IMG/VR virus record: IMGVR_UViG_2778261529_000003
From: a virus
Taxonomy: Duplodnaviria > Heunggongvirae > Uroviricota > Caudoviricetes
Reading direction: 5' to 3' (one strand)
Length of the DNA: 14,733 nucleotides
Made by a program: the position numbers and the translations under genes. Positions 4,254 through 14,733 of this stretch are shown here, piece by piece; the stretch's first letter is position 1; each line of letters opens with the position of its first letter. Below the pieces are notes generated by a model. It was not told the DNA's origin and did not search any database. It saw only the letters and a program-made list of their open reading frames with translations.

Positions 4254-5054
4254 ATGAAATTTCCAAAAACGCCCGTACAGGGGCGGGGCTTCGTTCGGCC
4301 TGAAAACCAGAATCTGCAAAATTTCGGCGAAATTATCCCGGTTATTTCCGGCATTATTGGCGGGTGTGAAACCAATATTGTTAGCGCCAGAGCGTTGCAT
4401 AAGGCGTTAGGTGTAGGTCGCGTTTTCCGTTCGTGGATCAAGGGGCGCATTGAAGAATACGGCTTCACGGAAGGCGTGGATTATGAGGTTGTTGAATATT
4501 TGAGCCGACCCGATCCGGTGAGCGCAAAATCTCGCCAGCAAACAGCTCTTGAGTACATCATTACCGTGAACATGGCAAAAGAACTGGCGATGGTCGAACG
4601 CACCGAACAGGGCCGCGCCGTTCGCCAGTACTTCATCAAATGCGAGGAGGAGCTACACAAGGTAGCGCCAGTGCGTTCCGCAGCTTTACGCCGGGAACTG
4701 AAAGCCCGTATCACCGTTGCCAGCTACTTTAAGCCAATGTGTGCCGCGCTGGAGGCGTACCGGGCTGAACTGGGTAAAAACACGCTCCAGCACCATTACA
4801 CCACGGAAGCCAATATGCTGGCGCGTATCGTGCTGGGTGGCATGACTGCAAAACAGTGGGCGCAGGCGAACGGCATCACAGGCGAACCACGCGACCACAT
4901 GAGCACATTGCAGCTTGAGCACCTTTCTTACCTTGAGCAGAGCAATATCACGCTGATTGAGTTAGGCCAGGACTACCACCAGCGGAAAGCTGAATTAATT
5001 CGTCTTTCGCAGCGTTGGTTAGCCCGTCGCATGGAGGAAAACAGCCATGTGTAA
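4254..5054 (+). CDS. phage antirepressor-like protein (AntA-type N-terminal domain)
   Basis: 266-aa ORF, ATG 4254 with AGGAG upstream. N-terminal ISARALHKALGVGRVFRSWIKGRIEEYGFTEGVDYEV resembles the AntA/AntB antirepressor domain. Confidence 0.7.
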   Translation: MKFPKTPVQGRGFVRPENQNLQNFGEIIPVISGIIGGCETNIVSARALHKALGVGRVFRSWIKGRIEEYGFTEGVDYEVVEYLSRPDPVSAKSRQQTALEYIITVNMAKELAMVERTEQGRAVRQYFIKCEEELHKVAPVRSAALRRELKARITVASYFKPMCAALEAYRAELGKNTLQHHYTTEANMLARIVLGGMTAKQWAQANGITGEPRDHMSTLQLEHLSYLEQSNITLIELGQDYHQRKAELIRLSQRWLARRMEENSHV

Positions 5055-5720
5055 CGCTCTGACCGTTACAAAAAGAGAAAGCGCCCCGTTGCCGGAGCGC
5101 CTTTGTGAACAAATCGCTTACTGCGCCATATTGTTTACTGCCTTTCGGGCAGATTATAGCGTTGTGGTCGCACAGAGTGAAGGCGCTGATCACTGTTACT
5201 ACAGTACGCCAGAAATGCAGAATATTTTGCTGCAAAATGCCGTTAGCCACGCTGTCCGGAAAGCAAAAAATTTTGCTGGTGGCGCGACTGATGCGATTTT
5301 GTCAGGTCACCAGGTGCTGATCAATCTGATGTCTGATTTCGTTCTGGATAAAACAAAGGCGACTGCAGAGGGCCACCAGTGGGAAAGCTACACACTTGAA
5401 CACATTGCCAACAATGCCAGATTTGCGGCTGGTGGGCAATGTGATCAGTGTGCTGGCTTGCTGGTGGGCTATTCATGCTCTTTAACATTGCCATGCCGCG
5501 ATGTTTTCCAGGTATGCGATCCCATTTTTGTGCGCCTGTACTCTTTAAGGAATTGCTCAAGGGCAAAAGCACATGGCGCGAATCTTTCTGATTCATGCTC
5601 TATCTTTCTGCGCCGTCTTTTCCGTGCCGGTGATGGTGTATTGGTTGATTCTTTGTTGGTCATTCTGTGTACCTGTAAAGCAATGCGCCGGAGTTCCTCA
5701 CACCACGGCGATGATAGTTA

Positions 5721-5900
5721 TTATTCTGATTCTTTGGCCTTGCGGCGCTGGCGGCGTTTGATCTCGCCTTTTGCGGCAGTAACTAAAAAACCAGCGGTAC
5801 TTTCGCCAGGTTCTTTAAGTTGCTCAATATCATCCATTACTTCATGTGGGATTCTGACAGTTGTCATTTGTGATTTTGCGTTTTTTGCACCAGTTGCCAT
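5721..5900 (-). CDS. small ribbon-helix-helix (Arc/MetJ/CopG-like) DNA-binding protein, candidate island repressor
   Basis: 59-aa ORF from the internal ATG of the 5721..6077 minus ORF, with AGGAG 9 nt upstream. MATGAKNAKSQMTTVRIPHEVMDDIEQLKEPGESTAGFLVTAAKGEIKRRQRRKAKESE has a beta-strand then two helices, the RHH pattern. Transcribed divergently from the replication operon. Confidence 0.6.
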   Translation of the reverse strand: MATGAKNAKSQMTTVRIPHEVMDDIEQLKEPGESTAGFLVTAAKGEIKRRQRRKAKESE

Positions 5901-5966
5901 TTCTGGATCTCCTAAAAATTGGTGTATGTCAGTATACGCAAAAAAAATGATAAAAAAAGGCTTGAA

Positions 5967-6012
5967 GTGTATTTCACCAGTGAGTAAATTAAAAAGCAAA
6001 GGTGAAATACAC
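5967..6012. promoter_or_regulatory. perfect 12-bp inverted repeat GTGTATTTCACC (21-bp spacer) GGTGAAATACAC, candidate operator in the divergent intergenic region
   Basis: Read directly. Located between the RHH gene start (5900) and the first rightward small ORF (6094), flanked by A-tracts. Confidence 0.5.
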
Positions 6013-6093
6013 CTAAAAGAGCAACGCCCCGCAGTGCTCGCAACACATGCAGGGCGTCTAACCACCAACGATAGCAAGAGTATCGAGGTAGCT

Positions 6094-6297
6094 ATGGGAA
6101 ATCATACCACACACCCGCAAGGGCGGGACTCGCACAACCTGAATAAATACATCTGGCGTTTTATCGCCCTGAGCACGGCACAACCGCGCGTAATTCACAT
6201 CGAGGCCATCAGCGAACAGGAAGCACGCCAGCAATCTCCTGATGGCTGTGTGATGGTATTCGCCGCCCGTATTCGTCAGGGGGTAAGCCATGCATAA
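6094..6297 (+). CDS. hypothetical small protein (67 aa)
   Basis: ATG 6094 with GAGG upstream. Ends in SHA-stop with the 8-nt overlap junction CATGCATAA onto the next gene. This is the terminal segment of the long 5047..6297 frame, so the start is uncertain. Confidence 0.35.
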   Translation: MGNHTTHPQGRDSHNLNKYIWRFIALSTAQPRVIHIEAISEQEARQQSPDGCVMVFAARIRQGVSHA

Positions 6298-6881: not shown

Positions 6882-7074
6882 TCATGAAGCGCATGTACCC
6901 GTAGCGCTTAATGTGCCAGATGATTTCACCGGACGCGTACTGGTTTACCTGGATAAAGGGAAAGTGAAATCACAATGCCGACTGAAAAGTAATGAGATTG
7001 TTGGTTCTCCTGAATTTTTTTCTGAACTCTGTATTCGTGCGGAAATAAAACCGGAACTGCTGACAGGAATATAA
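6874..7074 (+). CDS. hypothetical small protein (66 aa), paralog of the 6290..6655 N-terminal region
   Basis: ATG 6874 with GGAGG 8 nt upstream. Shared MHN / FTG-R/Q-LV / IKP motifs with the 6290 product. Confidence 0.55.
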   Translation: MHNHEAHVPVALNVPDDFTGRVLVYLDKGKVKSQCRLKSNEIVGSPEFFSELCIRAEIKPELLTGI

Positions 7075-7078
7075 AACC

Positions 7079-7369
7079 ATGAAAAAGAAAAATTCTGGCT
7101 TTACTGCCAGCGGTCTCTCTCGGCCTGAAATCAGACACGGAGATATTTACCGCGACACCAGACGTGGGGGACGAGTGGTTATTCGTCACGTTACGCCAGG
7201 CAATATCACCTACCGCCGTGAGGCTTACGAATATGACTGTGTAATGCCGCGCCGTCAGTTTGAGCGTGATTTTATTCTGGTTGAAAACAAACAACAGGCG
7301 GTGGCGAGACGTGCAGCCACGAATATTAAAAAAATCCGGGCAATGTTGGTTGCGGGAGGTAAGAAGTGA
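7079..7369 (+). CDS. hypothetical basic protein (96 aa)
   Basis: ATG 7079. Stop TGA overlaps the GTG start of the downstream replication gene (GTGA), indicating the same operon. Confidence 0.5.
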   Translation: MKKKNSGFTASGLSRPEIRHGDIYRDTRRGGRVVIRHVTPGNITYRREAYEYDCVMPRRQFERDFILVENKQQAVARRAATNIKKIRAMLVAGGKK

Positions 7370-9171
7370 AAAACGCACCGAATTTAAAATATCAGCCGAA
7401 GGATAAATTCACCGAGGTAATCATTTTGGCCGGGACGGATGCTTACGCCCATGCTCAACACTGGATTGAAAGCGAAGGACGAAAACACGGCGATAACGTA
7501 CCACCTGTTTACCTGGGGCCGAAGCAACTGGCAGACCTGGCGAATATCCGCATTATTGACGAGAAACGCCGCTTTGCGCGTGTCTATCTTGCGGGGGAGA
7601 TCGAGCCAATCCAGATCAATGCTATCGCTGAAAAACTGGCGCTGGCTGGCGTACAGGACGCGAAATTATACAAAGGTATCACCGATCGGGAGCCGGAAAA
7701 CTGGCGCGACTACCTGCAACGGATCCGCGAACAGGCAGAGAGTGGGGAAGTTTCGGCGATGAAATTAGCCACAAAAAATATTGACCTACCCAGGCCAGCA
7801 CTAAATCAGATGGGAGCCAGCCAGAGAGGGGAAGTGTTACTTGAATATTATGGAAGAGCACTGGCTATAAATGATGATTCTGATGTAGTTCACCATTACA
7901 ACGGAATTGTCTGGGTGCCTGTATCTGATAAGGAACTCCAGCGGTCTATGGCGAAGATTTTTATTGATGCTGGAATCAGTTATTCGCAAAACGCCATTAA
8001 ATTTGCCGTAGACACAATGAAATTGAGCCTGCCTGTTATGGGCGGGGCTGACAGGAATCTTATTGGATTCAGTAACGGGGTATTTGATACCAGGACAGGA
8101 AATTTTCGGGAGCACAACAAAAATGACTGGTTGTTAAATGCCAGTGAATTACCGTTCAGCCCACCAGCAGAGGGGGAAACGCTGGCAACACATGCGCCGA
8201 ATTTCTGGAAGTGGTTGCGTCGTTCGGTGGCAGATAATGATCGTAAAGCTGATCGCGTACTGGCGGCATTATTCATGGTACTGGCGAACCGGTACGACTG
8301 GCAGTTATTCCTTGAGGTAACTGGCCCAGGCGGAAGCGGTAAAAGTGTGATGGCGGAGATTTGTACCATGCTGGCTGGTAAGGCCAACACAGTATCGGCA
8401 AGCATGAAGGCGCTGGAAGACGCAAGGGAACGCGCGTTAGTCGTTGGCTTTTCGCTGATTATCATGCCGGATATGGCCCGCTACGCTGGAGATGGTGCAG
8501 GAATTAAGGCAATTACTGGCGGCGACAAGGTGGCAATCGACCCGAAACATAAAGCCCCCTACTCCACACGTATTCCGGCGGTAGTGCTGGCAGTAAACAA
8601 TAACGCCATGTCATTCAGTGATCGCAGTGGAGGGATCTCGCGTCGTAGGGTGATATTTAATTTCTCTGAGGTCGTACCGGAGAACGAACGCGATCCCATG
8701 CTGGTGGAAAAAATAGAAGGCGAACTGGCGGTAGTGATTCGCCACCTGCTTACTCGTTTTTCTGACCAGGATGAAGCCAGACGTCTGTTATATGAGCAGC
8801 AGAAATCAGAAGAGGCACTGGTGATAAAACGCGAGGGTGATTCACTGGTGGACTTTTGCGGCTATCTGATGTCGTTGGTTAAATGTGAAGGAATGATGGT
8901 GGGCAATGCGGAAATAGTGCCATTTAGCCCGAGGCGGTACCTGTATCATGCTTATTTAGCCTATATGTCAGCGCATGGCCTGGGAAAACCAGTATCACTG
9001 ACACGCTTTGGTACAGATATGCCAGGAGCTATGGCGGAATACGGAAAGGAGTATAAGCGGGCTAAATGCACTAAAGGCCAGGATAAAGGGCGAGTGATAA
9101 CAAATGTTCTGTTAGATGATGATGCTGATGGTTGGTTGCCAGCAGCAACAGGGATTAACGACAGAACATAA
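7366..9171 (+). CDS. replication initiator: D5_N domain plus SF3 helicase (P4 alpha C-terminal-like primase/helicase family)
   Basis: 601-aa ORF, GTG start with GGAGG upstream. Walker A GPGGSGKS; D5_N-like segment NGVFDTRTGNFREHNKNDW. Followed immediately by an iteron array. Confidence 0.88.
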   Translation: MKNAPNLKYQPKDKFTEVIILAGTDAYAHAQHWIESEGRKHGDNVPPVYLGPKQLADLANIRIIDEKRRFARVYLAGEIEPIQINAIAEKLALAGVQDAKLYKGITDREPENWRDYLQRIREQAESGEVSAMKLATKNIDLPRPALNQMGASQRGEVLLEYYGRALAINDDSDVVHHYNGIVWVPVSDKELQRSMAKIFIDAGISYSQNAIKFAVDTMKLSLPVMGGADRNLIGFSNGVFDTRTGNFREHNKNDWLLNASELPFSPPAEGETLATHAPNFWKWLRRSVADNDRKADRVLAALFMVLANRYDWQLFLEVTGPGGSGKSVMAEICTMLAGKANTVSASMKALEDARERALVVGFSLIIMPDMARYAGDGAGIKAITGGDKVAIDPKHKAPYSTRIPAVVLAVNNNAMSFSDRSGGISRRRVIFNFSEVVPENERDPMLVEKIEGELAVVIRHLLTRFSDQDEARRLLYEQQKSEEALVIKREGDSLVDFCGYLMSLVKCEGMMVGNAEIVPFSPRRYLYHAYLAYMSAHGLGKPVSLTRFGTDMPGAMAEYGKEYKRAKCTKGQDKGRVITNVLLDDDADGWLPAATGINDRT

Positions 9172-9198
9172 TACGAAATTTATAAGCTGAAACGTAAA

Positions 9199-9540
9199 GG
9201 TAGACGGTTGGTAGACAGATTCACTTAACTCTCTACCAACCATCTACCAATTAATATTTTGAATTATAAAGATATTTTCAATGTGGTAGAGAGGTGGACA
9301 GTTATTTCTATATTCCTAAACCACGGGGGGTATATAAAAAAACAGATAGTTAAGGGTTCATTTTTTAAATTTCTCTTTTAACTGTCTACACTGTCTACCA
9401 TTTAGTAAAAATCATTAATTATCAATGTATTAATGCGGTAGACAGTTAGTAGACAGTTTGCAGATTGTTTTTTTGTTATGAGTTAATAACATTAAATAAA
9501 TCAATAAATTATATCGGTAGACAGTTGGTAGACAGTTGTA
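9199..9540. repeat. iteron-type replication origin: about 12 copies of GGTAGACAGTT in pairs at 11-bp phasing, both orientations, separated by AT-rich tracts
   Basis: Pairs at 9199-9220, 9232-9250 (inverted), 9284-9305, 9380-9400 (inverted), 9436-9460 and 9515-9540. AT-rich candidate unwinding element around 9305-9370. Confidence 0.8.
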
Positions 9541-9543
9541 ACG

Positions 9544-10086
9544 ATGGGGCAAAGCATGACTAAGCTGACCATTAACAGAAAACCGAAAGGCATTTATGGC
9601 ACGCCGCAGAAAACGACGCAGGTGGCACAGGAGCAGGATAAAACCACGTCGGCGCATAAAGTGATGCCCGGTAACCAGAAAGCGCAGCAGAAGCCCACAG
9701 GGGCGACACCGTGGCGGCATATGACCAAGCGCCAGCGCAAAAACCGCAGGCGCATTAACCGCCTCACTGAGTTGTGGCCTGAATTATTCAGTCGGGAAGC
9801 ACCGAAGCCGCTTAAGGTGGGGATATTCGACGACCTGATGCAGGATCTCGCCGTCAGGGGGCTGGCATTCGGTCCAGGGGCATTGCGTGCGACGCTGGCA
9901 TCTTATGCACAGTGTCCGCGCTATTACCGCGCCTTAATGGCTGGTGGGGTACGCTACGACCTGAAAGGCCAGCCGTGCGGCGAGGTGACACCACAGGAAC
10001 AACAGGACGCAGAAACGCGGCTGGTGGCGCTGAATGAGAAGCGCAAACGTCAGCGCCGGGTAGCAAAGGAGAAAACAGGCGCATGA
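9544..10086 (+). CDS. FinO/ProQ-domain RNA-binding protein (RNA chaperone-like)
   Basis: 180-aa ORF (alternative start ATG 9556 with GGGG upstream). Core LTELWPELFSREAPKPLKVGIFDDLMQDLAVRGLAFGPGALRATLASYAQCPRYYRALMAGGVRYDLKGQPCGEVTPQE closely resembles the ProQ N-terminal/FinO domain. Basic tail. Confidence 0.7.
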   Translation: MGQSMTKLTINRKPKGIYGTPQKTTQVAQEQDKTTSAHKVMPGNQKAQQKPTGATPWRHMTKRQRKNRRRINRLTELWPELFSREAPKPLKVGIFDDLMQDLAVRGLAFGPGALRATLASYAQCPRYYRALMAGGVRYDLKGQPCGEVTPQEQQDAETRLVALNEKRKRQRRVAKEKTGA

Positions 10087-12105: not shown

Positions 12106-12633
12106 ATGCTGATGAGTAAGGCAGAATATGCCAAACACAAAGGCGTAAGCCGCCAGACAGTTTACGACTGGATCGATAAAGGCGAAGTGGTCATGTCCGG
12201 TAAAAAAATCGATGTGGAAGCGACAGAGCAGCGGAACAGCCCACCTGCACAGGGAAAAGACACAGTTTCTGAAATGTGGCCAGAGAGAACGCTGGAAATG
12301 ACGTGGGGCGAGTTCTGGAAAGCAGTTAAGGCCAGAGGCGGTAAAATTCCTGCGCCAGCAACGGACGAGGGCATACAGCAGCGTGTGCTGGATGCAGCCG
12401 GGGAATTAGGCTGGGAAGTGCACTTTCTTGATGATGGTGCTATCTGCCTTGAGGATTGCGACGGGCAGCATTACTTTGAACAATACAATTTGCGAGGTAA
12501 TGCCAGGCTGGCAATTCGTATGCTGCGTTGCGAACTCTGCTATGTTGCAGGTGATTATCCCGATGAACTGGAATCATGGAGTGAAGCCGGGCTAAACGCC
12601 CTGGCTGAATGGGAAAAATCAGACCATCAATGA
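12106..12633 (+). CDS. Nu1/terminase-small-subunit-like HTH protein; candidate packaging-redirection (Rpp-like) factor
   Basis: 175-aa ORF. N-terminus MSKAEYAKHKGVSRQTVYDWIDKGEV has the Nu1-type winged-HTH pattern (compare lambda Nu1 KKQLADIFGASIRTIQNWQEQG). Last gene before a repeat array. Confidence 0.55.
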   Translation: MLMSKAEYAKHKGVSRQTVYDWIDKGEVVMSGKKIDVEATEQRNSPPAQGKDTVSEMWPERTLEMTWGEFWKAVKARGGKIPAPATDEGIQQRVLDAAGELGWEVHFLDDGAICLEDCDGQHYFEQYNLRGNARLAIRMLRCELCYVAGDYPDELESWSEAGLNALAEWEKSDHQ

Positions 12634-12635
12634 CA

Positions 12636-12851
12636 TCAAAAAGTGTCAAGTTGAGCAGCTTGCCAGGTTGACACTTTACACTCTGAACGCGAAAAAGTGT
12701 CAACCTCGCTGTAAGCCCCGCCATTACTGGGTTTGTGCCAGATTTACCACGTCAAAAAGCCGAAAAAATCGCGAAAAGTGTCAAGTTGCTATGCTTAGAA
12801 ATGCTAAGGTTTGATAAGGTTTTTCGCGAAAAAGTGTCAAGTGTGTCAACC
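12636..12851. repeat. array of at least five (GCG)AAAAAGTGTCAA sites, one inverted, candidate binding sites for the adjacent HTH protein (cosB/pac-like)
   Basis: Copies at 12638-12653, 12668-12677 (inverted), 12689-12705, 12771-12788 and 12825-12841, plus a half-site TGTGTCAACC at 12842-12851. Confidence 0.65.
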
Positions 12852-13125: not shown

Positions 13126-13953
13126 ATGATAAACTTAGATATGGATGTTGTGGTTGGACATGGGCAGAACGATTTTGAAGAATTAGAAATGAATTCCGGC
13201 ATAAAGGTTTTTGCTGGAGCTTCTGACATCACCCAAATTACAACAAGCACTATTTTAGATGATTCAGTCCCCAAAAAATCAACCTCTATACATGGGCTTA
13301 GGAATATGTTCAAACATACATTTGATGGATCGTTTGGACAAAATTTTGAACTTAGAATTGATGATCCTGAAAAGATAAAAAGATTTAATGAAATTGGCAG
13401 GGGTGTTTTTTTTGATGTTATGTCATATTACATCTCTAAAGGAATGGGAATAGCTCACCATCTTAAGAGCCAGAAAGCAATCGACTTAGTAGAGCGTCTT
13501 AAACCGCTTGAAAAACAACTTTTGATAAGAATTCAGGAACCTATACAGAATTTACATAAAACAGTTGAGAAACAAAAATATAATGTACTTCTGAGAAGAA
13601 GAACACCAACTAAAAAATTAGTTGTTGCTAAAATGGATACGCAGACGCTCTTCAATATCAATGTAGAGCATGAATCTGCTCAACCAGTAGAAGAAAATGT
13701 TATTATAACTAGGTTTAATATGTTAACAGGAACTGGTCGATTGTTATTAGATAGACAGTCAGATTCAATTGCCTTTAGACACCATCTTAATTGGGAACAT
13801 GTATTGCAGTCTCAGAAAAATAAGTTTTCAAGGAATCTTGATAGGAATAACAGAGGTGGTAAAGACGCTTTTATACCTATAACCATTTCTGCTTATGAGT
13901 TGCGCGATCATATTGGAGAGCTAAAGGCTTATATAATTAGAGAAATATTGTAA
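13126..13953 (+). CDS. hypothetical soluble protein (275 aa), first gene of an AT-rich cargo operon
   Basis: Long ORF in strongly AT-rich DNA, K/N/I-rich codon usage unlike the island core. Stop TAA 13951-13953 directly abuts the next ATG. No family recognised. Confidence 0.65.
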   Translation: MINLDMDVVVGHGQNDFEELEMNSGIKVFAGASDITQITTSTILDDSVPKKSTSIHGLRNMFKHTFDGSFGQNFELRIDDPEKIKRFNEIGRGVFFDVMSYYISKGMGIAHHLKSQKAIDLVERLKPLEKQLLIRIQEPIQNLHKTVEKQKYNVLLRRRTPTKKLVVAKMDTQTLFNINVEHESAQPVEENVIITRFNMLTGTGRLLLDRQSDSIAFRHHLNWEHVLQSQKNKFSRNLDRNNRGGKDAFIPITISAYELRDHIGELKAYIIREIL

Positions 13954-14733
13954 ATGAAGATGCCCTCAATCAAAGTTATTTCACTTATATTAATAGCTAT
14001 TGTATGGTATTTTTACTTTTCTCATTTCAATCATTGGGATAGCCCGTTAGATATCTTTAATGCTAGCAAATGGATGGGTTTTTCCAATGATAAAGGTGAT
14101 TGGGGCACTTTCGGGGATTTTGTAGGAGGTGTGCTTAATCCTATCTTGACCTTCATTACAATTGTTATGCTCATTAATTCCTTGAAACTTCAACGAGAAG
14201 CAAACGAGCAACTAATTAAAGACGAAAGAAGACAAGAGAAAGACGTTCTTCTAAAACGGTTTGAAGACGGTTTTTATAACCTTATCTCTTCAGAAAGAGA
14301 GGAGTTTAGTTGTTTTACTATTAACATTAACGGAAAAGAATACCGCTCATCTGCTGCTGTTAGTGAATTGGAAGAGGCAATATGGGCTTTTATTGAGAAA
14401 CAAATAGATGAAAAAGGAGCTTGCGAAATTGAGGATGTTAAAAATTACATAAATAAAATTGATGAGGATTCATCTATGGCAATATTTTCCATGGTGCGAT
14501 GTGTATATGTTGTTTTTAAGGTTGTTAAGGATAAATGCCCTGAAGAACATCAAGATTACTACTTAGATATTTTTATGAATATGTTACCAGTTAAACTGGT
14601 AAATTTAGTTGCTATTGTGTCTGTGTATATGGACTGGAAAAACGTAAAATATATTATTGATGGTGGAAAAGGATTTTCGGATAATGAAGCAGTTAAAGAA
14701 TATATTAATACTTGGAAGGAGTTTCATGAATAA
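13954..14733 (+). CDS. hypothetical membrane protein (259 aa) with two N-terminal transmembrane helices, candidate effector
   Basis: Hydrophobic segments VISLILIAIVWYFYFSHF and FGDFVGGVLNPILTFITIVMLINSL, then a charged, probably helical cytoplasmic domain. Zero-nt intergenic spacing from the upstream gene. Confidence 0.7.
   Translation: MKMPSIKVISLILIAIVWYFYFSHFNHWDSPLDIFNASKWMGFSNDKGDWGTFGDFVGGVLNPILTFITIVMLINSLKLQREANEQLIKDERRQEKDVLLKRFEDGFYNLISSEREEFSCFTININGKEYRSSAAVSELEEAIWAFIEKQIDEKGACEIEDVKNYINKIDEDSSMAIFSMVRCVYVVFKVVKDKCPEEHQDYYLDIFMNMLPVKLVNLVAIVSVYMDWKNVKYIIDGGKGFSDNEAVKEYINTWKEFHE

Follow-up and report, generated by a model that had tools for sequence, protein, structure and literature searches.

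An array of paired iterons downstream of rep as the probable replication origin of a chromosomal phage-satellite island

Gene order and layout of the iteron array

The stretch of DNA analyzed here (the window; 14,733 bp) begins in proA and continues through tRNA-Thr(CGT) (1369-1444), beside proA, after which every gene lies on the + strand, in the order int, AlpA, AntA-like, Icd-like, DUF4222, rep, repeats, ProQ/FinO-like, PerC, DUF2213, and helix-turn-helix (HTH) terS-like. The subject of this report is the repeat region at 9199-9537, an array of short iterons between rep and the ProQ/FinO-like open reading frame (ORF), which is very probably the replication origin of a phage-satellite island of the phage-inducible chromosomal island (PICI) type located at tRNA-Thr next to proA. 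The rep gene (7366-9171, + strand; annotated "pri-rep" or "DNA primase family protein") encodes a predicted superfamily 3 (SF3) helicase-initiator of 601 amino acids. Its GTG start overlaps the stop codon of the DUF4222 gene, and its own stop, at 9171, is followed by the first iteron at 9199.

The array consists of 12 units of 11 bp with the consensus GGTAGACAGTT, 8 on the + strand and 4 on the − strand. The initial annotation had described about 12 copies in both orientations at 9199-9540, and both the count and the limits proved accurate. The units form six pairs in the order ++ -- ++ -- ++ ++. With up to two mismatches allowed, the window contains 17 matches to GGTAGACAGTT, 12 of which fall within 9199-9537, whereas dinucleotide-preserving shuffles gave an expectation of 2.38 (standard deviation, 1.5; maximum, 8), and none of 200 shuffles reached 17. 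A pattern search of the rest of the window found no further cluster of the motif. Of the 12 units, 3 reproduce the consensus exactly, and unit positions 2, 3, 5, 6, and 9 are identical in all 12.

Spacing at one helical turn, which had been claimed for the pairs in general, was found in four of them (11 bp; 9199/9210, 9227/9238, 9437/9448, and 9516/9527) and fails in the other two (8 bp at 9285/9293 and 9 bp at 9380/9389). Pair 1 (9199-9220, + strand) is made of GGTAGACGGTT at 9199 and GGTAGACAGAT at 9210, and pair 2 (9227-9248, − strand) of GGTAGAGAGTT at 9227 and GGTAGATGGTT at 9238; these two pairs are mutually inverted and form a 20-nucleotide (nt) inverted repeat that is 90% complementary. 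The single-strand DNA fold of the region has a z-score of −4.8, but this reflects the inverted iteron pairs and was not taken as evidence of a functional hairpin. Pair 3 (9285-9303, + strand) comprises GGTAGAGAGGT at 9285 and GGTGGACAGTT at 9293, with overlapping units, and pair 4 (9380-9399, − strand) comprises TGTAGACAGTT at 9380 and GGTAGACAGTG at 9389. Pair 5 consists of GGTAGACAGTT at 9437 and AGTAGACAGTT at 9448 and is adjoined by a 13th, degenerate unit, TGCAGATTGTT at 9459, the whole spanning 9437-9469 on the + strand. Pair 6 (9516-9537, + strand) is formed by two perfect GGTAGACAGTT units at 9516 and 9527 and stops 6 nt short of the first ATG of the ProQ/FinO-like ORF. In the closest E. 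coli relative of the region (strain FDAARGOS_1058, 99.5% identical), the equivalent of 9516-9537 holds three tandem GGTAGACAGTT units, so that the copy number of this last cluster differs from that of the window by exactly one 11-bp unit.

The pairs are interleaved with AT-rich DNA, in agreement with the initial annotation. The GC fraction is 0.27 across 9300-9499 and 0.11 to 0.28 in the individual spacers. When all 40-mers of the window are ranked by stability, the lowest three (9476-9515, 9243-9282, and 9395-9434, in that order) are spacers of the iteron region. The first spacer (9249-9284) has a GC fraction of 0.11. The central spacer (9304-9379; 76 bp; GC, 0.28) has the convergent pairs 3 and 4 on either side and is a candidate melting region. 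The third (9400-9436; 37 bp; GC, 0.16) is flanked by the divergent pairs 4 and 5, and the fourth (9470-9515) contains the least stable 40-mer (GC, 0.12).

The third and fourth spacers also hold the only two matches in the whole window, on either strand, to the integration host factor (IHF) consensus WATCAANNNNTTR. These matches, at 9420-9432 and 9499-9511, lie 4 to 5 bp upstream of pairs 5 and 6 and sit inside a 38-nt direct repeat module (9421-9458 and 9500-9537). No DnaA box (with up to one mismatch) was found in 9101-9600 and no GATC site in the origin region, and firing of the origin is therefore probably independent of DnaA. An Rfam search retrieved no RNA family in the region.

Rep resembles P4 alpha and carries a C-terminal winged helix

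Rep matches the Pfam families D5_N, DUF5906 (the SF3 helicase core), and Pox_D5, and its motifs are intact, with Walker A (GPGGSGKS) at amino acid 320, Walker B at amino acid 365, and an RRR arginine finger at amino acid 426. Residues 146 to 592 are 50% identical to the alpha protein of phage P4, the protein as a whole is 44% identical to Pri-Rep of the published island EcCICFT073, and the helicase/ATPase core matches the cryo-electron microscopy structure of PriRep from the Staphylococcus aureus pathogenicity island (SaPI) SaPI5 (7OLA; E value, 6e-10). The best match in the genome collection is from Escherichia ruysiae (98%), and Rep is full length and 98% identical to many E. coli proteins. 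A Foldseek search of the PDB with a model of full-length Rep retrieved nothing at an E value of ≤0.001; weaker matches to DnaG, T7 primase, Twinkle, and SaPI5 PriRep were discounted as evidence.

The C-terminal domain (amino acids 491 to 592; 8836-9141, + strand) is matched by phmmer to the origin-binding winged helix of P4 alpha (PDB 1KA8; E value, 5.3e-19). The initial annotation had taken the product of 7366-9171 for the initiator, and the similarity to helicases of the P4-alpha/PICI Pri-Rep type, together with this C terminus, points to the same role. A conserved YLYHAY helix is found at amino acid 525. In the 1KA8 winged helix the tyrosine pair of this motif belongs to helix alpha2, and the wing is the beta2-beta3 hairpin (PMC2777425). 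The segment of Rep at amino acids 561 to 585 (KEYKRAKCTKGQDKGRVITNVLLDD; 9046-9120, + strand) comes, in the alignment with 1KA8, after the helix that follows the YLYHAY helix. AlphaFold2 (AF2) models were built for full-length Rep and for its C-terminal 131 amino acids from alignments of 24 sequences each, and both, although of low confidence (predicted local distance difference test score [pLDDT], ∼42), place strands at about 563 to 567 and 577 to 581. Because of its position in the 1KA8 alignment and the paired strands in both models, this segment is most likely the beta-hairpin wing, and it is proposed as the determinant of iteron specificity.

At the other end of the protein, amino acids 1 to 122 (7366-7731) are 61% identical to the N terminus of the unrelated RepA/DnaB-like helicase of EcCI042. 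This N-terminal part of about 122 residues looks, from the sequence comparison, like a portable module common to two replicase types. In the AF2 model it adopts an alpha/beta fold, with a pLDDT of 60 to 88 for residues 15 to 125.

Repeats accompany rep in homologous loci

About 110 loci were compared, with 23 from a one-genome-per-species collection, 80 from IMG/VR, phage P4, the vB_KppS-Ant element, and four published PICIs. In all of the 25 loci first examined, a gap without a long ORF lies 3′ of rep (139 to 691 bp, mostly 270 to 600 bp), and in 23 of them short repeats of either orientation are clearly clustered in this gap, the exceptions being L013 and L025. The first gene downstream of the cluster belongs to more than 40 unrelated families, which shows that the repeats go with rep and not with ProQ. 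The homologous loci share the iteron frame GGnnnAnAn, within which the classes GGTAGACAG/C, GGTAGATAG, GGTGAACAC/G, GGCGGACAG, GGTGGACAG, and GGTGGAGAG are found. Sister islands with a RepA-type replicase carry their own, different iterons downstream, AAAGTGAGG.

One of the compared loci, deposited as "Escherichia phage vB_KppS-Ant" (LR881103), is a 16.5-kb "induced prophage" record with int, capsid, portal, and terminase genes. Its Rep is 73% identical to that of the window, and a single cluster of GGTGAACA iterons lies directly 3′ of rep. This element appears to be a capsid-forming satellite of the PICI type that was deposited under a phage name.

The window shares its iteron core with a functional PICI origin

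In Gram-negative PICIs the origin is located immediately 3′ of pri-rep, where sets of iterons flank AT-rich DNA (PMC6092414; Fillol-Salom et al. 2018, ISME J). The window presents this location and this arrangement, with iterons in both orientations around AT-rich DNA, so that the rep-then-ori order of PICIs recognized in the initial annotation agrees with the published one. In the same study a clone of EcCICFT073 rep and the region downstream was maintained at the restrictive temperature, and deletion of either rep or ori impaired maintenance. A deletion primer in the supplement of that paper shows GGTAGACAGGGTAGACAG directly behind the CFT073 gene, and eight GGTAGACAG-like units (with up to one mismatch) were found in the CFT073 locus at 7010-7237, directly 3′ of rep. 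The iteron core of the window is therefore that of an experimentally tested origin.

EcCICFT073 and the window both carry int, alpA, an Icd-like gene, DUF4222, pri-rep, ori, and PerC on one strand, and the core GGTAGACAG is identical in the two. They differ in the Rep protein, which shows only 44% identity between the two and has another wing sequence in each, and in the layout of the origin: EcCICFT073 packs about 10 iterons into 240 bp, mostly 9 to 11 bp apart and in the order -- + --- ++ ++, whereas in the window six pairs are spread across 340 bp with longer AT-rich spacers. The attachment site (tRNA-Thr/proA in the window, ycfD-phoQ in EcCICFT073) and the downstream gene (ProQ/FinO in the window, a hypothetical protein and SSB in EcCICFT073) are also different.

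Among the other published islands of E. coli, EcCIIHE3034 has GGTAGACAG iterons like those of EcCICFT073, and in both islands the wing differs from that of the window and Rep is 43 to 44% identical to the window Rep. EcCIRM13514 and EcCI224 have GGTGAACAG iterons, and the tail of the Rep type shared by EcCI224 and locus L054 holds KRKTKHGLRSNVTL. EcCI042 has a RepA-type helicase and AAAGTGAGG iterons. The kind of element described here is already known, but its Rep/ori variant is absent from the five published E. coli PICIs compared (EcCICFT073, EcCIIHE3034, EcCIRM13514, EcCI224, and EcCI042). The window Rep is 74 to 77% identical overall to the EcCI224/RM13514 type, with a helicase identity of up to 92 to 96% in some relatives. 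In terms of sequence it looks like a mosaic of an EcCI224/RM13514-type helicase body and a wing of its own.

The initial annotation had further regarded the iteron sequence as island specific and hence diagnostic. This part does not hold, since the same core is found in EcCICFT073 and EcCIIHE3034, despite the divergence of their Rep proteins, and in islands of other genera. A core common to unrelated islands marks a specificity class and not an island.

Iteron class co-varies with the wing of Rep

In the Rep alignment, mutual information with iteron class is highest in columns that cluster at amino acids 564 to 600. Iteron positions 3 to 5 (TAG, TGA, CGG, or TGG) match the wing type in all of the approximately 50 distinct C-terminal tails of Rep, with no discordance. 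As a predictor of a shared iteron class, wing identity reaches an area under the curve of 0.976 in a set of 68 distinct sequences, compared with 0.72 for the helicase and 0.74 for the winged-helix core. For pairs that are at least 90% identical in the helicase, wing identity is at least 0.60 when the iteron class is the same and at most 0.52 when it is different.

Natural exchanges of the wing together with the iterons are seen in four pairs of loci. The window and L054 are 96% identical over amino acids 1 to 470 and only 28% identical over amino acids 561 to 585, with iterons of GGTAGAC and GGTGAAC, respectively. Over amino acids 146 to 470, L024 and L021 are 99% identical, L017 and L016 are 98% identical, and L007 and L005 are 98% identical; over amino acids 561 to 585 the values drop to 48% (GGTGGAG versus GGTGAAC), 52% (GGTGGAC versus GGCGGAC), and 36% (GGTAGAC versus GGTGAAC). 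In these pairs the DNA identity drops sharply at a point 120 to 180 nt ahead of the rep stop codon, where the recombination breakpoints are placed, and does not recover downstream. At least four to six wing/iteron classes occur in enterobacterial satellites (PICIs, capsid-forming PICI-like elements, and P4), namely, GGTAGAC, GGTGAAC, GGCGGAC, GGTGGAC, GGTGGAG, and GGTAGAT, on helicases that are otherwise nearly identical.

These patterns suggest, with a fair degree of likelihood, that the wing of the P4-alpha-type origin-binding domain, of about 25 residues, and the adjoining iterons constitute a swappable specificity cassette. The element in the window would then plausibly be a natural chimera, in which an EcCI224/RM13514-like helicase body is combined with a distinct wing and an EcCICFT073-like iteron core. 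If such a cassette exists, it would amount to a readable protein-DNA recognition code and would predict cross-replication or interference among co-resident satellites.

Relationship to P4, SaPI, and theta-type replicons

The P4 genome (NC_001609) resembles the window in that the helicase and the origin-binding winged helix are homologous and repeats in both orientations with the frame GGnnnAnAn come right after the gene. The repeat annotated in P4 as "ori type 1 repeat" (TGTTCACC/GGTGAACA) is present in both ori and crr and is exactly the TGA iteron class, and sister islands with a P4-like wing have exactly the P4 octamer, whereas the iteron of the window is GGTAGACAG and not GGTGAACA. Of the features of a P4-type replicon, the window has the alpha-type winged helix and lacks the type 1 octamer, the second iteron cluster, and the N-terminal primase domain. 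The island also lacks the P4 genes sid, psu, delta, and epsilon.

SaPI Rep, an SF3 helicase that loads itself, recognizes the iterons next to the 3′ end of rep through the winged helix at its C terminus; it binds and melts the DNA without ATP, and two hexamers load on either side of an AT-rich center (PMC9371898). As cited in that paper, Ubeda et al. (2007 and 2012) describe 6 to 12 iterons in opposite orientations around the AT-rich center. The window has the same Rep/ori architecture, with the link between winged helix and iterons suggested by co-variation. The two systems differ in the length of the iterons (5 to 6 nt in SaPIs and 9 to 11 nt in the window) and in their hosts and helper phages, and their sequences are only remotely related.

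Theta plasmids (pSC101, R6K, RK2, and F) likewise have repeated initiator-binding sites, which are putative in the window, beside an AT-rich unwinding element. Their iterons, however, are direct repeats of 17 to 22 bp, bound by Rep_3-type initiators that recruit DnaA and DnaB, whereas the window has 11-bp units in both orientations, no DnaA box, and an initiator that is itself predicted to be an SF3 helicase.

Interpretation of the region as an origin

An iteron origin bound by its initiator, as proposed in the initial annotation, is supported by the core shared with EcCICFT073 and by the co-variation of iterons and wing. The repeats, their statistics, the homology, the position of the array, and the co-variation are direct observations, from which binding of Rep, melting, and helicase loading at the repeats are predicted. 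Once the early operon of the island is switched on, the 601-residue Rep would be made and, by analogy with SaPI Rep and P4 alpha, would act as a self-loading hexameric SF3 helicase. Its C-terminal winged helix would bind the 11-bp iterons, with the wing reading the variable positions 3 to 5, and pairs spaced by 11 bp would place two domains on one face of the helix. Paired, oppositely oriented iterons would position Rep on both sides of AT-rich spacers, one of which would melt, and helicase rings would self-load there and lead to bidirectional replication. The two IHF-consensus sites by pairs 5 and 6 may help to bend the DNA.

Several observations weigh against this interpretation. Binding and initiation are predicted from homology and co-variation. 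Among nine close relatives (90 to 99% identical), 24 of 127 iteron columns and 48 of 212 spacer columns are variable (P = 0.49). The DNA coding for the wing lies only 50 to 120 bp from the iterons, and the swap pairs differ everywhere past the breakpoint, so that physical linkage contributes to the co-variation. A functional link is nevertheless favored, because a short hypervariable wing on a protein that is 90 to 99% conserved always changes together with the repeats. At a pLDDT of 42, the assignment of the wing relies on the 1KA8 alignment and on secondary-structure patterns. Finally, Rep has no detectable primase domain: amino acids 1 to 150 match no Pfam family even at an E value of ≤10, whereas the N terminus of P4 alpha has Zn-ribbon and Toprim primase domains (Zn_Ribbon_Prim and Toprim_3 matches). 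This part of Rep hence gives no support to its RefSeq name, "DNA primase family protein."

In P4, moreover, the region immediately 3′ of alpha is crr and not the site of initiation, and the array might by the same token be a crr-like element, needed in cis as a binding site for Rep, with initiation at another site. The P4 record annotates the cluster 3′ of alpha (4291-4590) as crr and places the rep_origin (9086-9809) about 2 kb past the other side of alpha; ori and crr both carry the type 1 repeat, and the window Rep is half identical to alpha over the helicase and origin-binding parts. However, P4 has two separated iteron clusters (ori and crr), both of them needed in cis, whereas the window and the complete elements L001 (a sister island) and L027 (vB_KppS-Ant) have one each, the cluster includes the least stable DNA of the window, and EcCICFT073 rep with only its downstream region sufficed for plasmid maintenance (PMC6092414). 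A crr-like role is thus improbable, and a single combined origin is favored because of the single cluster in these three elements and because the CFT073 clone needed only rep and the region downstream.

Less probable still is an operator or promoter of the ProQ/FinO-PerC late genes, bound by a transcription factor or by Rep as a regulator, instead of an origin. The last pair ends just ahead of the ProQ-like ORF, a scan for promoters and terminators, with hits at chance level, found no terminator-like site on the + strand between rep and this ORF, and mosaic loci in E. coli ETEC1747 and ETEC1732 carry the region and ProQ behind another replicase. Yet promoter-like sites are at chance level (3 found versus 2.0 expected), the clusters follow rep whatever the next gene, the type of iteron tracks the wing of Rep, the homologous repeats of P4 are annotated as replication elements, and the equivalent region of EcCICFT073 is needed for replicon function (PMC6092414). 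Binding of Rep may still have a secondary regulatory effect.

That the array is the decayed relic of an origin that no longer fires in a defective island is the least likely explanation. It would fit the low number of perfect units, iteron columns that show no higher conservation than the spacers in close relatives, and IS3 insertions in or beside the region in several relatives. Against it, Rep is not truncated, its Walker A, Walker B, and arginine-finger motifs are intact, and many E. coli proteins are nearly identical to it; all six pairs are kept in 98 complete E. coli genomes at 90 to 99% identity; and degenerate units are a regular feature of the functional origin of EcCICFT073 as well.

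Read as a replication origin, the array gives a function to a gap of 370 bp in E. coli genomes in which RefSeq annotates nothing, and it marks the island as a satellite of the PICI type whose replicon is apparently intact. The current picture of replication in such elements is unchanged. The most useful by-product is the co-variation of wing and iterons, which offers a rule for predicting iterons from the Rep wing that could serve the annotation of satellite origins. The rule could also predict the replication compatibility of co-resident satellites and guide the design of orthogonal Rep/ori pairs.

Occurrence and other features of the island

The repeat region is present in 105 to 126 of 5,426 complete E. 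coli genomes at 90 to 99.5% identity, always on the chromosome and always unannotated in RefSeq, and E. coli has the whole arrangement at the same place in its chromosome. When the phage collection was searched at the DNA level with the origin region, no match was obtained, and a literature search for the 11-mer retrieved unrelated papers only.

The context is that of a PICI, with int (a tyrosine integrase; 1611-2825, + strand), alpA (an AlpA-family regulator, PF05930; 3979-4176, + strand), rightward transcription, a replication module, packaging-like genes, and the tRNA-Thr site. The right end of the island lies beyond the window; in the sister locus L001, island-type genes extend from int, near 2 kb of the locus, as far as about 18 kb. 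The Rfam int-alpA RNA motif (RF02996) is found at 2870-2937, between the integrase gene and the next ORF, with 45.5 bits against a gathering score of 35.8. The ORF called mechanically at 5047-6297 (416 amino acids) matches the Icd-like cell-division-inhibitor family in its last ∼45 residues only and is probably over-extended; in relatives, the equivalent region is annotated with a short Icd-like gene and, on the other strand, a YlcI/YnfO gene.

Another repeat cluster, unrelated to the first, is found at 12640-12840, in the noncoding stretch directly 3′ of the HTH terS-like ORF (12106-12633, + strand). It contains five exact copies of AAAGTGTCAA, four on the + strand and one on the − strand, where 1.1 would be expected in the whole window. 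In the orientation GGTTGACACTT this repeat resembles the iteron frame, but its triplet is different; no second, P4-like iteron cluster was found, and the repeats at 12640-12840 are treated as a separate feature that may be a packaging or regulatory site. Sister island L001 has the same AAAGTGTCAA cluster in the same place (14234-14487). The distal part of the window (13126-14733) contains two AT-rich ORFs of 275 and >259 amino acids, the second of which runs off the window. They have no match in Pfam or NCBIfam and one marginal match in PADLOC (E value, 2e-4), and probably represent accessory cargo genes at the island's far end; the equivalent region of L001 holds a GapS1 defence gene.

In some relatives the replicon is disrupted or rearranged. 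IS3-family insertions lie between rep and the origin in E. coli J2 (L031) and inside the origin, after query position ∼256, in FDAARGOS_1300 (L034), so that not every copy of the island has an uninterrupted replicon. The mosaic locus of ETEC1747 (L029, 152-3115) contains a RepA-family helicase with its own iterons (AAAGTGAGGA; ∼8 copies), a 5′ fragment of ProQ, a window-type origin (∼97% identical), and a full ProQ. In that of ETEC1732 (L033), a pseudogene fragment of a RepA helicase is followed by a window-type origin and ProQ. Both loci thus carry the window-type origin without an adjoining cognate Rep.

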